A DNA stretch of 64,000 bases from Escherichia phage ECO103 4-12-1, in sequence record OR844650; one strand, written 5' to 3'. Positions 1 to 64,000 of the stretch are shown here, piece after piece (the first letter of the stretch is position 1; the number at the start of each line of letters is the position of its first letter). Both the position numbers and the translations under genes were made by a program. The notes under the pieces were generated by a model. That model was given only the letters and a program-made list of their open reading frames with translations, did not search any database and was not told where the DNA came from.

Positions 1-261
1 AAAATCAACATCAGTTCTTACTTCTTTTCCTTCTTTGATGAATTGTTCAGTTGTCTTTTTAGCTGTACCACCACGAGTAGGATGACCCTGACCACACAAA
101 AAATTACTTGGAGTAATATTGAACTCACCAAAATCAGGGTCAATGATAGTTACTTTTGTTTTGTTATTGATGTACACAACTTTACTATAATCAAAATCTA
201 TATCAGTTCTTACTTCTTTTCCTTCTTTGATGAATTGTTCAGTAGTTTTTTTGGCTGTCAT
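1..261 (-). CDS. hypothetical protein, 5' portion only (gene continues past window start); internal repeat TAKKTTEQFIKEGKEVRTD[IV]DF
   Basis: ATG at 261-259 with AGGA about 8 nt upstream; frame open to position 1; ~50-nt direct DNA repeat (approx 6-55 and 195-244). Confidence 0.5.
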   Translation of the reverse strand, partial: MTAKKTTEQFIKEGKEVRTDIDFDYSKVVYINNKTKVTIIDPDFGEFNITPSNFLCGQGHPTRGGTAKKTTEQFIKEGKEVRTDVDF

Positions 262-312
262 TTTTCTTAATCCTTAGTACGTTTCGTTTCGATGAGTACA
301 TAATACAAAAAA

Positions 313-337
313 GGGTGACCGAAGTCAACCCTTTTTT
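313..337 (-). terminator. intrinsic terminator, variant of the recurring GGTTGAC-UUCG-GTCAGCC hairpin
   Basis: hairpin 313-331 followed on minus RNA by U run; overlaps stop of 325..738. Confidence 0.5.
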
Positions 338-738
338 CTTTCAATCAAACATAGTCTACCAGAATGTACCATGCGATGGTGATTAGAACAAAGAATCATA
401 CACTTTCGAATTTCATCTTTGATAGCATCTCGACTTTTACTGAACATAGAACTTGGTGTATGATCTTTGGTATTAGGGTCAAGATGGTGAAAGTCTAAAC
501 ATTCTGGATACTTCATCATACAAATACTACAACCATAAAATGATTTAACTCTGGTCATGAAATCTTTATTTTTTCTTTTGATTTCTTCAAGTTTTTTGAC
601 ATCAGTTTTTTTATTTCTGGTTTTCTTACTGGTAATATTACTACAACCTTTGCATGTATTTCTATGTTTCCCAGTATCTTTTCTTATACCAAATTCACTA
701 ATGTCTTTTTCAATATTACACGTGATACACTTCTTCAT
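325..738 (-). CDS. HNH endonuclease
   Basis: 137 aa; Cys-rich N-terminus and HNH core (FHHLDP ... CSNHH). Confidence 0.7.
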   Translation of the reverse strand: MKKCITCNIEKDISEFGIRKDTGKHRNTCKGCSNITSKKTRNKKTDVKKLEEIKRKNKDFMTRVKSFYGCSICMMKYPECLDFHHLDPNTKDHTPSSMFSKSRDAIKDEIRKCMILCSNHHRMVHSGRLCLIERKKG

Positions 739-750
739 TGTTTAATCCAT

Positions 751-1038
751 TTATTCAACAATCCCCAACTTCACAATCTCATACCCGTCCAGATAGCCGT
801 AGGAACACTCAGGTGTTTCATAAGATGAACCATCATGGATGCCTTGGCATTGACTTTTGGAATTCTCAAGCAATCGTTGCAGTACTGATACGTCATCAAG
901 AACGTAATACAAGTTAGCATATAGGTCCGTTACAATACAGTACTCCAACATATCAAATGTATCAATCGAAATTTCAACCTTAGCAAATCGTTTCTTTTCT
1001 TTATTATACAGTGCGTACATATTAATCTCCATAATCAA
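751..1038 (-). CDS. hypothetical protein (possibly C-terminal part of a disrupted kinase-like gene)
   Basis: 95 aa ORF overlapping end of 1022..1393 in another frame. Confidence 0.4.
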   Translation of the reverse strand: MIMEINMYALYNKEKKRFAKVEISIDTFDMLEYCIVTDLYANLYYVLDDVSVLQRLLENSKSQCQGIHDGSSYETPECSYGYLDGYEIVKLGIVE

Positions 1039-1393
1039 GTTTAACTAACTTACCACCCAGATACCCAAAGTTTTCTGGCTTCGCATCTGAATAGAAGAAG
1101 TCAGTACTTAACTCTGAATTCAATGCTAAAGCACACAACTCCACCCAAAATAAACCCCTATGTTGTACTGGCTTACAACGTTTCTGTATAGTTACTAGTC
1201 CAGTACATGATGACCACAACGTAGGGCAGATACCACTATTACTACGCTTGGAGTACTGCATCCACGAACGTTCATTGAGGTTAGCTATCATCCCTGTTAA
1301 GAATAGCTTCCAACTTTTAAAGGTTGGAATCTTGATAGCATATTCCCCAATGAGTATGACAGTTCGTGTTGCACCTTTCAAATCTATATTCAT
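1022..1393 (-). CDS. protein kinase-like fragment (N-lobe, catalytic loop, DYG)
   Basis: YAIK lysine motif, catalytic-loop-like DAKPEN, KLDYGD; ORF ends right after DYG. Confidence 0.5.
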   Translation of the reverse strand: MNIDLKGATRTVILIGEYAIKIPTFKSWKLFLTGMIANLNERSWMQYSKRSNSGICPTLWSSCTGLVTIQKRCKPVQHRGLFWVELCALALNSELSTDFFYSDAKPENFGYLGGKLVKLDYGD

Positions 1394-1402
1394 ATTTTTT
1401 AA

Positions 1403-1654
1403 TTAGAAGAACACAAACCAAGTCCAGAATAAATTCCACACTACAAATAAAGACATAGTGGTTTTATGTACAATATCAGCAGTACTGGTCCATCCTCCAC
1501 CGTGTCCTATTCCATTTATGAATAGAACTAAGAACAAGATACCATTTACTACAATAGTACATAGTAAGTACACAAACACATTCCATGCAAGTTCAGGGGA
1601 TACTAACGTAAATGGTAAAACAATTAGTAGTATTAGAACTAATAAAATTTTCAT
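1403..1654 (-). CDS. small membrane protein
   Basis: 83 aa, two long hydrophobic segments. Confidence 0.5.
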   Translation of the reverse strand: MKILLVLILLIVLPFTLVSPELAWNVFVYLLCTIVVNGILFLVLFINGIGHGGGWTSTADIVHKTTMSLFVVWNLFWTWFVFF

Positions 1655-1870
1655 TTATCGCCTCACTTAATTAACGTGACAATTAGTACGAATCAGATTC
1701 CCAGTACTCGATTGCTTCTTTCAGCAATTCTTTAGCACGTTGTTTTGCAATGCGAGCGGGTAACAGATATGTGTACATTAACTGTCGCTTCACTTCATTC
1801 AGTGAAAGCTGTTCATGGTACAGTGCATCCATCAGTCGATTACGAGTACGTAGTTTCATATAAGTTATCC

Positions 1871-61930: not shown

Positions 61931-61938
61931 TTAATATA

Positions 61939-62283
61939 TTACTCCTGATCTTTGGTTCTAGCTCGACGTGGTGCTTTCTTCTCTTCAGAAACCTCAGCTT
62001 CTTGTTCTTCGGGCTTAACTTCAAAACTCTCATCATCCCATACTTCATCCGTACCATGTTCAGTACTATGAAGTTGATGTTCAGGGATATAATCAGGAAT
62101 TTGCATTTCTCGTTCTTTTTCTTGAATCAACTCTTCACGAGTTTTAATAATTGTTCCACCGGAACCGATTTTATCACCACGTGCGTTTAGATTAGCATTA
62201 CCCAATGCTACCTGATGTTGATTTTGGTACTTGAGCATATCCATGTCAATTGTTGTACCACGATAAGTTGTATGTTTAGACAT
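61939..62283 (-). CDS. hypothetical protein
   Basis: 114 aa ORF. Confidence 0.5.
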   Translation of the reverse strand: MSKHTTYRGTTIDMDMLKYQNQHQVALGNANLNARGDKIGSGGTIIKTREELIQEKEREMQIPDYIPEHQLHSTEHGTDEVWDDESFEVKPEEQEAEVSEEKKAPRRARTKDQE

Positions 62284-62328
62284 ATCAAAATCCTTTTATT
62301 GTATGTGTGATATAAGCCTACAATAAAC

Positions 62329-62358
62329 ATTATATCACATGTTTTTCTACCATTTCAA
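62329..62358 (-). promoter_or_regulatory. sigma70-type promoter TTGAAA-18-TATAAT
   Basis: rc reads TTGAAAtggtagaaaaacatgtgaTATAAT. Confidence 0.4.
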
Positions 62359-62865
62359 AAATTCGTTAACATCAAGTTCGTACTTCAATGAATCTACCAT
62401 ATGTAGTCCAATCAAAAACAAACAGTATGATGCAACAGAGCTTCCACGACCTAGACCCCAAAAGATCTCATTTTCTTCCATATAATCAACAAGCCATATC
62501 ATACATCTTAGTAGCTTTGTCATATTATAATATTCATATAAATCAAGTTCATACTCAACACGTTTTCGTGCTTCATCGGATGTGCATTTTTGTAAGAAAA
62601 AGTCACGCAGATTTATATTGTCGTATACTGGATCATATCGCCACAGTTCATGATTTTTATCATGCTCAATTGTATAATCCAGCATACGTTGTTCTAAGCC
62701 AAATTTTTTACAGTTATCATTGAATTTCAACCTTTCAGGTTCATCAATTTCCTGCAATTGTAAGTACTGGATATCTGCACCGCAATTGATTGCATAAACA
62801 ACTGCGTTAAGATTACATTTCACATCACCATTGGGACTTATAAATCTGTTTCCTTGTACTTTCAT
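62347..62865 (-). CDS. hypothetical protein with DnaE (Pol III alpha)-like GxGRGS segment
   Basis: C-terminal IFWGLGRGSSVASYCLFLIGLHMVDSLKYELDVNEFL. Confidence 0.5.
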   Translation of the reverse strand: MKVQGNRFISPNGDVKCNLNAVVYAINCGADIQYLQLQEIDEPERLKFNDNCKKFGLEQRMLDYTIEHDKNHELWRYDPVYDNINLRDFFLQKCTSDEARKRVEYELDLYEYYNMTKLLRCMIWLVDYMEENEIFWGLGRGSSVASYCLFLIGLHMVDSLKYELDVNEFLKW

Positions 62866-63136
62866 TTTTCTTCTTCTGGGCCTCTTCGTTGTCAGTTAGA
62901 TATGAATCCATATCGAAGATACATGGGTCTTCTTCGTCATAAACAGTTTTTTCTTTTTGTCCTTGGCGAAGTTCTAGTTCAGCATAACATTGATTTAAGA
63001 CAGTTTGCATATTACCAATAATCATGTCGCTTAGGCCAGCAGCACGAGCAGAAGTTAAACGCATAGACTGTTCATTAATTTTTAACTGTAGTTCTTTTTC
63101 CGTCATTCCAGACGGGTCAAAAAACGGATTAAACAT
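62825..63136 (-). CDS. hypothetical protein
   Basis: 103 aa ORF. Confidence 0.45.
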   Translation of the reverse strand: MFNPFFDPSGMTEKELQLKINEQSMRLTSARAAGLSDMIIGNMQTVLNQCYAELELRQGQKEKTVYDEEDPCIFDMDSYLTDNEEAQKKKNESTRKQIYKSQW

Positions 63137-63137
63137 A

Positions 63138-63953
63138 TTAACCTCCTATGTTATTGTTTTGCAATGTAATCAAAAATGTATCTGAAACATAATTCACTGA
63201 TTCATGCGAAAAGTATCCGAATTCAACCGATGTGATTTCGAACTCTACACCTACCATTGTACCATGTTCATTGTTCTGAAGTAAAGTGTTGAAAAATGCT
63301 TCACCTTTCCCTGGTTGACAATATGCAACTGGAATGATAGGCATGAATTTTTTCTGTATACCATCTTCAATGTATGGGTGATTCATAAATCTTGGAACCG
63401 TATCAAGCATTTCATCACTGATACTTGGTATCGCATCAACGTATAGACCACGATTTTGTAAATCGGTTGGGTCTTTTACTAAGTTGGTTGTGTCTTCACC
63501 AATAGCCTGAAAAATATTTTGTCGTAAACCAAATAATTCACCAAGCTGACCGTTGTCGATTTGAGTATATTGACGTGGATTTTTGGATACAGATACTAAA
63601 GATCCTTCAGGTAAAACCTCTCTATATAATAGATCATATTGTAAGTTACCTTGATTGTCAAGTGCTGATATTATTTTATAATTACCCATTACCATTTTAA
63701 ATTTTCCATTTGGAATAGTAGTTCCATTTGGGTTAATTATACTATTTCTCAATACTTTCTTGATATCAGAAAGGTTAGTATATGGATACGTTTGACTTAG
63801 GAAGTTTTCTTTCAATAACATCTTCGGTATTTTCTGAAGACCATATCTATTGTCAGATTGTCGGAAAAATAGTTGATTAGTGAATGATGAAGTACTGATA
63901 CATTTAAACCATTCTCTCTCAAATGCAACCGAAGGTAATACATGTGCACTCAA
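63138..63953 (-). CDS. hypothetical protein
   Basis: 271 aa ORF; true start may be a downstream Met. Confidence 0.55.
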   Translation of the reverse strand: MSAHVLPSVAFEREWFKCISTSSFTNQLFFRQSDNRYGLQKIPKMLLKENFLSQTYPYTNLSDIKKVLRNSIINPNGTTIPNGKFKMVMGNYKIISALDNQGNLQYDLLYREVLPEGSLVSVSKNPRQYTQIDNGQLGELFGLRQNIFQAIGEDTTNLVKDPTDLQNRGLYVDAIPSISDEMLDTVPRFMNHPYIEDGIQKKFMPIIPVAYCQPGKGEAFFNTLLQNNEHGTMVGVEFEITSVEFGYFSHESVNYVSDTFLITLQNNNIGG

Positions 63954-64000
63954 ATAATTCTGTCCGAATCCTCTTACAATCTTAAGGTTAAATATTTTTC

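Follow-up and report, generated by a model that had tools for sequence, protein, structure and literature searches.

AGTACT, an over-represented palindrome of Escherichia phage ECO103 4-12-1 and related jumbo phages, as a possible recognition site of a phage DNA reader

We analysed a 64,000-nucleotide stretch of DNA from Escherichia phage ECO103 4-12-1 (sequence record OR844650; this whole stretch is hereafter the window) and found that the palindrome AGTACT is over-represented throughout it. Exact counting gave 163 copies of AGTACT, which as a palindrome lies on both strands, spread over positions 1..64000 with a mean spacing of 389 bp; 35 of these are the full octamer CAGTACTG, and TCAGTACTGA occurs 10 times. 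The enrichment is independent of coding, is selected as a density while individual positions turn over, tracks one clade of phages, contrasts sharply with host DNA and goes along with a fixed geometry at promoters. Tentatively, we read AGTACT, with CAGTACTG as the putative optimum, as the site recognised by a duplex-DNA reader that phages of this clade would encode, for which it would serve as an operator at the early promoters of the terminal repeat. The existence and identity of such a reader, a methylation of AGTACT and an effect on transcription are things that we infer, and every functional statement here rests on sequence.

The window is 99.1% identical to Escherichia phage vB_EcoM_phAPEC6 (hereafter phAPEC6), a 352.6-kb jumbo myovirus of the genus Asteriusvirus (PBECO4/121Q group), and corresponds to ~21.9–86 kb of that record. 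It holds ~150 mostly small genes whose function is unknown, nearly all of them on the minus strand, as well as seven tRNA genes, a gene for an RpoD-like sigma factor and a gene for a C5 DNA methyltransferase; gene models were greedy open reading frame calls, checked only against the phAPEC6 annotation. For genome-wide counts, the whole phAPEC6 record was assembled from eight loci. Relatives were sampled as 35–50 kb each (about 41 kb around the major capsid gene for most) and not as whole genomes, E. coli K-12 was represented by a 50-kb sample, and homology tests for reader genes were done by tblastn only. AGTACT enrichment goes unmentioned in the papers describing the phAPEC6, CBB, RaK2, Sharanji, fEgEco12 and PA5oct genomes and in a 2026 jumbo-phage review, and a literature search for AGTACT or CAGTACTG with phage terms returned no earlier description of it.

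Size of the enrichment and its independence from coding

A first-pass annotation of the window had estimated more than a hundred copies of AGTACT against a few tens expected. Exact counting confirmed this estimate: base composition predicts 21.5 copies (observed/expected ratio, O/E: 7.6), and 100 dinucleotide-preserving shuffles gave 17.2 ± 3.9 with a maximum of 27. When hexamers were counted against a Markov background, as the annotation had proposed, AGTACT ranked first of 3,838 hexamers under orders 0–3, with 32.8 copies expected at order 2 and 60.7 at order 3. Only at the maximal order, order 4, was the excess almost absorbed (126 expected), since the same sites also push up the counts of AGTAC and GTACT, the pentamers that overlap them. 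Across the 180 hexamers that share its base composition, the median was 20.8 copies, and the runner-up, TGTACA, which is also a GTAC word, reached 58. For the octamer CAGTACTG, the expectation was 0.71 ± 0.87 copies against the 35 observed. Every 4-kb bin of the window contained 7–15 AGTACT sites, and the whole phAPEC6 genome carries 918 AGTACT against 119.5 expected (O/E: 7.7) and 198 CAGTACTG against 3.5 expected, each of its 10-kb bins being enriched (11 to 67 AGTACT; ~3.3 expected). As would be required of a genome-wide word, the over-representation survived the Markov controls of orders 0–3 and also the codon-preserving controls described below.

Within minus-strand genes the sites use each of the three frames (62, 32 and 50 sites), and 14 sites are intergenic; the first-pass annotation had likewise remarked on copies in different frames and between genes. 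Non-coding DNA of the window has 2.50 sites per kb and coding DNA 2.55. Across phAPEC6, 786 of 918 sites (86%) lie within coding sequences (CDS). A synonymous-codon shuffle that kept proteins and codon usage produced 33.8 ± 5.4 AGTACT in the CDS of the window, where 149 were observed (z = 21), and a codon-order shuffle predicted 22; codon or codon-pair bias was rejected as the cause on these grounds. Where the encoded protein offered a synonymous opportunity for AGTACT, it was used in 146 of 319 cases (46%), against 33 expected from codon usage. Moreover, the dipeptides Ser-Thr and Val-Leu were 1.45-fold over-represented and their reverses, Thr-Ser and Leu-Val, were not. From the codon shuffle, the use of opportunities and the dipeptide excess together, we conclude that selection acts on the DNA word, strongly enough to bend protein sequence.

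Flank information in the window was present only at position -1 (C in 80 of 163 sites) and position +1 (G in 66 of 163); beyond these each position carried ≤0.03 bit, and the information is confined to 8 bp. Half-sites of phAPEC6 had C at position -1 in 46% of cases and G in only 8%. The O/E in phAPEC6 was graded accordingly by flank, from 57 for CAGTACTG to ~10–14 with one good flank, 3–5 with A/T flanks and 1.2 for GAGTACTC, which looks like the behaviour of a recognition matrix and not of a dispersed repeat. A dispersed repeated element, such as a repetitive extragenic palindrome (REP) or a miniature inverted-repeat transposable element (MITE), was rejected, as no conserved sequence extends past the core. 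A LexA-like reading was unsupported as well, since phAPEC6 holds 9 copies of ACAGTACTGT against 43 of TCAGTACTGA.

These results bear on the view that AGTACT has no function and is a by-product of mutation bias, of codon or dipeptide usage or of the spread of a repeat. The near-absorption of the excess by the order-4 model could be cited for it, as could certain promoter copies that are clear duplicates. However, the former stems from the pentamers that the sites themselves raise, the codon shuffle yields 34 copies where 149 were observed, all frames are used, intergenic DNA is as dense as coding DNA, the flanks are random, and the same density is found at differing positions in five genera. 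Biased repair of the very short patch (VSP) type was unsupported too: it would deplete the one-mismatch neighbour AGTATT/AATACT, yet this was depleted only mildly (O/E: 0.82). The tests run have already refuted the absence of function, which we find barely credible. Since chance, composition, codon-pair usage and a repeated element are all excluded as the cause, the step from enrichment to a function at the DNA level, which the first-pass annotation had made, is upheld; neither of the outcomes that would have undone it, namely an equal abundance of hexamers of equal composition or an explanation by codon pairs, was observed.

Short palindromes are usually depleted in phage genomes, and the contrast drawn earlier between such words and AGTACT is real. 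In the window, 28 palindromic hexamers, each containing four or six G+C, have a count of zero; for every one of the 18 that contain four (e.g., GGATCC, CTGCAG, GGTACC, CGTACG, CAGCTG), 5.3 copies were expected. CCGG and CGCG stand at about 0.2 of expectation, and the exceptions among G+C-rich palindromes are GTGCAC (2.1x) and CACGTG (1.5x). The DNA in which AGTACT is amplified thus avoids restriction sites very strongly. AGTACT itself does not have the O/E below 1 of an avoided restriction site, its value being 7.6.

Distribution among phages and contrast with host DNA

The numbers of AGTACT in samples of other phages were as follows.

Salmonella phage Munch, capsid-region sample of ~41 kb: 61 copies, 13.7 expected
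Cronobacter phage GAP32, capsid-region sample of ~41 kb: 82 copies, 13.8 expected
Klebsiella phage RaK2, capsid-region sample of ~41 kb: 80 copies, 14.0 expected
Xanthomonas phage XaC1, capsid-region sample of ~41 kb: 121 copies, 13.9 expected
Pectobacterium phage CBB, sampled locus: 120 copies, 12.9 expected
Vibrio phage 2.275.O, capsid-region sample of ~41 kb: 8 copies, 13.7 expected (no enrichment)
Pseudomonas phage PA5oct, capsid-region sample of ~41 kb: 0 copies, 14.1 expected
Coliphage phi92 (unrelated), sampled: 0 copies, 11.9 expected

Enrichment tracks the phage clade, the RaK2-like jumbo phages, and not the host. Comparison of 24 ortholog groups of five motif-rich phages revealed 211 site positions, of which 162 were private to one genome and 4 were common to all five, while each genome held 41–82 AGTACT in these groups. 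As in identity words, positions turn over between genera and density stays, indicating that density is what is selected. The E. coli K-12 sample contained 3 AGTACT (0.06 per kb; O/E: 0.26) compared to 2.6 per kb in the phage, and the word therefore discriminates phage from host DNA ~40-fold. The complete lack of AGTACT in PA5oct and phi92 suggests that the site needs protection in enterobacterial hosts.

The distribution and the flanks also bear on whether AGTACT is bound by a protein of the host, such as the nucleoid-occlusion factor SlmA, and would serve the phage to block cell division or titrate a host regulator. The SlmA site, GTGAGTACTCAC, has an AGTACT core, and we take SlmA to be the one E. 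coli protein known to bind it; the shared core speaks for this possibility, and so does the filamentation of infected cells described in the Sharanji paper. However, the SlmA flanks are disfavoured in the phage: GAGTACTC occurs 4 times (O/E: 1.2), GTNAGNNCTNAC twice and the full consensus GTGAGTACTCAC not once in 352 kb, and G is the least favoured base at position -1. Furthermore, enrichment is present in a Xanthomonas phage and lacking in coliphage phi92, thereby following lineage and not host. SlmA, which has no phage homologue, was rejected as the reader; the SlmA version is already largely refuted, and we consider a host-protein site of any kind highly improbable. The first-pass annotation had named several functions and chosen none: a binding site for a phage or host protein, a modification or nicking target, or a packaging or replication signal. 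Among these, a host-protein site is accordingly the one that fared poorly, and a phage reader of duplex DNA is the one favoured by the promoter positions and the 20–23-bp pairs described in the next section; a modification target is possible by way of the PF05869 methyltransferase discussed below.

The tetranucleotide GCGC is absent from the window (0 vs 48 expected), from the whole 352.6-kb phAPEC6 genome (0 vs 295 expected) and from the sampled DNA of Munch, GAP32, RaK2, XaC1 and CBB. Its frequency is normal in PA5oct (28 vs 31 expected), Vibrio phage 2.275.O (43 vs 49) and phi92 (37 vs 40), and E. coli K-12 has 342 copies per 50 kb, about 7 per kb. Among the sampled phages, the clade boundary of GCGC absence is the same as that of AGTACT enrichment. 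A phage-encoded, GCGC-specific nuclease directed against host DNA is possible.

Promoters, the terminal repeat and strand-specific islands

The first-pass annotation had also placed AGTACT directly against the -10 element of several consensus promoters, and we found this arrangement at six near-consensus promoters of the window, three of them within the tRNA cluster at 31–35 kb and one with a second site upstream. These promoters, the closely spaced AGTACT pairs (19–22 bp; n = 7) and a terminator-like hairpin read from the sequence are listed below.

2466..2509, minus strand: sigma-70-type promoter, TTGACA-N10-AGTACTG-TATAAT; site 2481-2486 abuts the -10 element
13047..13090, minus strand: promoter, TTGACA...AGTACTG-TATAAT; site 13062-13067
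17360..17403, minus strand: promoter, TTGACA...CAGTACTG-TATAAT; site 17375-17380
32507..32551, minus strand: two-site promoter directly upstream of the tRNA-Ser gene 32413-32504; site 32543-32548 just upstream of the -35 element and site 32523-32528 against the -10 element, 20 bp apart
32967..33011, minus strand: promoter, TTGACT...CAGTACTGA-TATAAT; site 32983-32988
33377..33420, minus strand: promoter, TTGACT...CAGTACTG-TATAAT; site 33392-33397
3976..4000: AGTACT pair, 19 bp start to start, in a CDS
9796/9818, 15551/15572, 32523/32543, 33445/33465, 42354/42375 and 49183/49205: the other AGTACT pairs
37090..37119, minus strand: terminator-like hairpin, ATACCCAGT-CAAGT-ACTGGGTAT followed by a T-run; site 37103-37108 in the loop and 3' arm

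A terminator of CBB is likewise made of two motif copies, according to the CBB paper.

The same geometry is found outside the window, in the terminal repeat. On phAPEC6, the two ends of the linear genome of G17 fall at 324,293 and 344,368, indicating a direct terminal repeat of ~20 kb, a size confirmed experimentally in the fEgEco12 paper. This repeat, which carries the early genes, is the densest AGTACT region (~6.7 sites per kb), and in the 320–348-kb stretch around it the density is 10.6 per kb in non-coding and 4.6 per kb in coding DNA. Small genes fill the repeat, and every one of them follows a sigma-70-type promoter close to consensus. In 45 promoter-like sequences of the repeat, AGTACT peaks at -7 (n = 12) and -27 (n = 11) from the -10 hexamer: the -7 class lies one base upstream of the -10 element (AGTACTG-TATAAT), the -27 class lies on the upstream edge of the -35 element (AGTACTTGCA, AGTACTATTGACA), and 6 of the 45 have both sites, 20 bp apart. 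In all, the palindrome overlaps the -35 or -10 element in 20 of the 45 promoter-like sequences and in the six window promoters, as an operator does; unlike operators confined to regulatory regions, most AGTACT copies are in CDS. The distance of 20 bp between the peaks and an excess of gaps of 20–23 bp would fit pairing on the same helix face, as at regulated promoters. Taken together, the fixed operator-like promoter positions and the excess of 20–23-bp pairs favour a reader that binds duplex DNA.

Further observations were made on transcription signals of the window. The tRNA cluster (31069-34895, minus strand) has seven genes, Thr, Asn, Met, Ser(ACT), Arg, Ser(TGA) and Gly, and the AGTACT at 34104-34109 abuts the 5' end of tRNA-Ser 34014-34103. 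A module AAGGTTGACTTCGGTCAGCC-TTTTTT-N-TATAAT/TATACT occurs on the minus strand at 313-327, 5212-5226, 6292-6306, 7869-7883, 8052-8066 and 11294-11308. It is an intrinsic terminator made of a hairpin and a T-run, and its stem includes TTGACT at the right distance from a -10 hexamer, so that the end of one transcript and the start of the next seem to share a single element; this design is also listed as a terminator in the CBB paper. The hexamer TAAATA has 8 copies on the plus strand of the window (O/E: 0.10, in the plus-strand orientation only), where it would be the core of a T4-type late promoter (TATAAATA) facing against the minus-strand early genes, and its scarcity could be avoidance of antisense late promoters.

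Beside the terminal repeat of phAPEC6, and likewise outside the window, are two stretches free of AGTACT, 309,065-316,764 and 319,424-324,424, the second of which ends at about the repeat boundary (324,293). In these stretches 0 of 58 synonymous opportunities were used. The first (7.7 kb) contains 38 TGTACT, distributed over the frames as 13/13/11, and its plus strand is without any AGTAC; the second (5 kb) contains 9 AGTACA and so has the reverse polarity. phAPEC6, G17 and PBECO4 share an identical pattern, and we therefore rejected a sequencing artefact at a modified base and an assembly artefact. Repeat and composition scans for an origin-like structure between the islands found only paralogous small genes. 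As the islands show, selection can also act on a one-sided form of the word, which keeps a strand-specific reading alive.

According to such a reading, AGTACT would be a signal for replication or recombination, read as 5'-(C)AGTAC-3' on one strand, either an extended primase site or a Chi-like regulator of a helicase-nuclease, and the palindrome would be the cheapest way of placing it on two strands. Its main support comes from the islands, with one-sided variants of opposite polarity, a use of all three frames and an identical pattern in three independent genomes; in addition, density-type selection and turnover of positions resemble Chi, and by analogy with the primase sites of T7 and T4, 5'-CAGTA-3' would template a pppACUG primer. 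On the other hand, one-sided variants had no sustained polarity over the rest of phAPEC6, nothing comparable to the islands was found beside the CBB terminal repeat, and the fixed promoter positions and pairing at two helical turns would go unexplained. Known primase sites are trinucleotides that need no enrichment, and the phage already has E. coli Chi at ~13x excess. We consider a strand-specific signal improbable.

The Chi count in phAPEC6 comprises 12 GCTGGTGG and 15 CCACCAGC against ~1 expected each (~13-fold). Copies of CCACCAGC are located in the window at 2971 and 18584, and several Chi copies lie between the genes of the terminal repeat, the place at which a linear genome would be entered by RecBCD.

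Candidate factors, known systems and significance

The genes considered in connection with AGTACT were the following.

43771..44631, minus strand: C5-cytosine DNA methyltransferase (286 aa, PF00145), rejected as the AGTACT enzyme
284,012-284,533 of phAPEC6: PF05869 (Dam family) adenine methyltransferase, candidate modifier
18832..19785, minus strand: phage RpoD-like sigma factor, context only, no link to the motif found

The C5 methyltransferase has orthologues in Asteriusvirus, CBB, GAP32, RaK2 and XbC2; at E ≤ 1e-99, Munch and XaC1 were absent among the matches listed. A homologue with 51% identity is carried by phi92, which has zero AGTACT. CpG methylation was reported in the RaK2 paper from bisulfite sequencing, along with restriction results stated without data. 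The enzyme was rejected as the AGTACT modifier as it is CpG-directed according to that paper and AGTACT contains no CpG, as its homologue occurs in the AGTACT-less phi92, and as the matches listed at that threshold included neither Munch nor XaC1. Several Asteriusvirus genomes (the relatives TH47, A4, UE-S1, ph0011 and JNE01) matched over residues 78-286 only, and the TH47 and A4 records have two places matching the enzyme, which suggests that the gene is split by insertion or truncated in those relatives. The HTH_37 regulator located beside the sigma factor in CBB was rejected as the reader, having no homologue detectable by tblastn in phAPEC6.

The PF05869 adenine methyltransferase, in contrast, matched 63 phage records at E ≤ 1e-40, named Escherichia, Klebsiella, Erwinia, Salmonella, Yersinia, Xanthomonas or Serratia. 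These seven genus names are the genera of the RaK2-like relatives, and no match was named Pseudomonas or Vibrio. The matches listed (best 60 of 63) include Munch, RaK2 and XaC1; the enzyme is also annotated in CBB and GAP32, and the PA5oct paper mentions no methyltransferase. It is thus co-distributed with AGTACT enrichment and is a candidate modifier, which we treat as a lead only. In Asteriusvirus, Munch, RaK2 and CBB alike, the PF05869 gene always adjoins a small gene that resembles cytidylyltransferases, with a weak match to PF01467 (phAPEC6 L007:12482-13533; CBB L023:19528-20631). The two genes may be linked in function, or their proximity may be no more than a reflection of the NAD-salvage genes that these phages carry.

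This enzyme brings in the possibility of a pure modification target, in which a phage methyltransferase marks AGTACT and the methyl mark itself matters, with no dedicated repressor. The mark could serve strand discrimination for repair, protection from a nuclease attacking unmarked DNA, or methylation-sensitive promoters, and density would be selected since a 6-bp site is too rare by chance (~1 per 3 kb). Consistent with a mark of this kind, the PF05869 enzyme has the same clade distribution as the enrichment, AGTACT is purged in phi92 and PA5oct yet amplified here, which implies protection, and positions turn over while density is kept. The AGTACT density (1 per 384 bp) is also of the same order as that of GATC in E. 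coli. However, we know of no orphan-methylase motif that is enriched several-fold, a bound protein is what the fixed geometry of two-site promoters and the spacing of two turns speak for, tblastn detected no MutH- or SeqA-like gene, and the RaK2 paper reports CpG methylation only. We judge a pure mark to be unlikely.

To return to a reader of duplex DNA, selection maintains about one AGTACT per 390 bp across the phage chromosome, compared to about one per 17 kb in the K-12 sample, and given this gap in density the proposed reader would mark phage and not host DNA. When bound at the -35 and -10 elements, it would obstruct RNA polymerase and thereby switch early transcription. In its most coherent specific form, the proposal would be a private epigenetic system of the Dam/SeqA kind, in which the PF05869 enzyme would methylate AGTACT and the site would be read by its methylation state, like GATC in E. 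coli. Methylation would explain why avoidance is absent here although phi92 and PA5oct purge the site, and a requirement for one site per few hundred bp would account for the enrichment of a word as long as 6 bp. Binding that depends on methylation state, to pairs two helical turns apart, would shut early promoters after replication.

Several points weigh against this proposal. No reader gene was identified among the candidates examined, and E. coli SeqA and MutH queries had no credible match in phAPEC6 by tblastn, a low-sensitivity test to which remote homologues are invisible. With 86% of AGTACT within genes, tight binding every 390 bp should hinder transcription and replication. The strand-specific TGTACT/AGTACA islands differ from what a symmetric dimer predicts. 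The bin of 20–23 bp, in which gaps outside the terminal repeat of phAPEC6 are in excess (16 against 6.9 expected), was picked after seeing the data. Characterised PF05869 members act on GATC, and the co-distribution of the enzyme amounts to one clade-level phylogenetic event, likely shared by many other genes. Finally, the published CBB promoters carry no AGTACT in the CBB paper, so the operator role may be limited to Asteriusvirus and hence narrower than the genome-wide role. The probability remaining after all these readings belongs to mechanisms that we have not thought of.

Compared with known systems, AGTACT resembles the identity words statistically and resembles GATC/SeqA or a repressor operator in its promoter geometry, and it is a member of none of them. 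As with GATC in the Dam-SeqA-MutH system of E. coli, a short palindrome occurs every few hundred bp, pairs lie one or two helical turns apart on regulated promoters, and an orphan adenine methyltransferase is encoded in the same genome, here co-distributed with the motif. GATC in E. coli is near chance frequency, whereas AGTACT, a site of 6–8 bp, needs ~8-fold enrichment to reach that density; moreover, methylation is a proposal here, the carrier would be a virus, and SeqA and MutH homologues were not found by tblastn. The DNA uptake sequence (DUS) of Neisseria, the uptake signal sequence (USS) of Haemophilus and Chi likewise have hundreds of copies in all frames, conserved in density and not in position, in sharp contrast to foreign DNA, with copies serving as terminator stems. 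However, those words are asymmetric, have one orientation and have known readers (ComP; the RecC subunit of RecBCD), whereas AGTACT is a palindrome with no known reader, with polarity only in the two local islands and with fixed promoter positions in addition.

Closer in geometry are repressor operators and the sites of SPO1 TF1, since here too the strong early promoters, grouped together in a long terminal repeat, have palindromes on the -35 element or next to the -10 element. TF1 sets a precedent, as this abundant DNA-binding protein of a phage has a preference for phage DNA and acts as a repressor of the early promoters in the terminal repeat. TF1 recognises hydroxymethyluracil DNA and not a sequence word; the AGTACT copies are mostly in genes far from promoters, and no HU-like or repressor gene has been assigned. 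The stoperators of mycobacteriophage L5 are similar in that a phage genome has many copies of a single repressor site at places other than promoters. They are asymmetric and 13 bp long, number ~20–30 per genome, and are mostly intergenic and oriented with transcription. AGTACT was rejected as a stoperator set, being a palindrome without orientation that has 918 copies, 86% of them in CDS.

A broader idea, which we regard as somewhat unlikely, is a two-part identity code in the unmodified DNA of RaK2-like jumbo phages, in which one AGTACT per ~390 bp and zero GCGC would separate their own chromosome from that of the host via phage enzymes or readers. The readers could include a private Dam/SeqA-like methyl system on AGTACT, and a GCGC-directed nuclease could attack host DNA. 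If true, the code would replace base modifications of the T4 style and couple the shut-off of early promoters to replication.

Phages are known for purging short palindromes, and here one has been driven the opposite way across a clade of 350-kb phages, with selection that biases codon choice at nearly half of the possible positions and even amino-acid sequence. This implies an abundant sequence-specific reader or mark that nobody has described, in phages in which >80% of the genes have no known function. Direct tests exist, namely ScaI digestion, methylome sequencing and pull-down with CAGTACTG, GAGTACTC and CTGTACTG duplex oligonucleotides. In practice, ScaI and GCGC cutters behave abnormally on these genomes, and recoding or synthetic-genome work on these therapeutic-candidate phages would unknowingly destroy or create sites. 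That this clade also lacks GCGC points to another mechanism, complementary to the first. If AGTACT is a self-mark, it would offer a handle on how jumbo phages that form no nucleus and have ordinary bases separate their DNA from that of the host and time early transcription.

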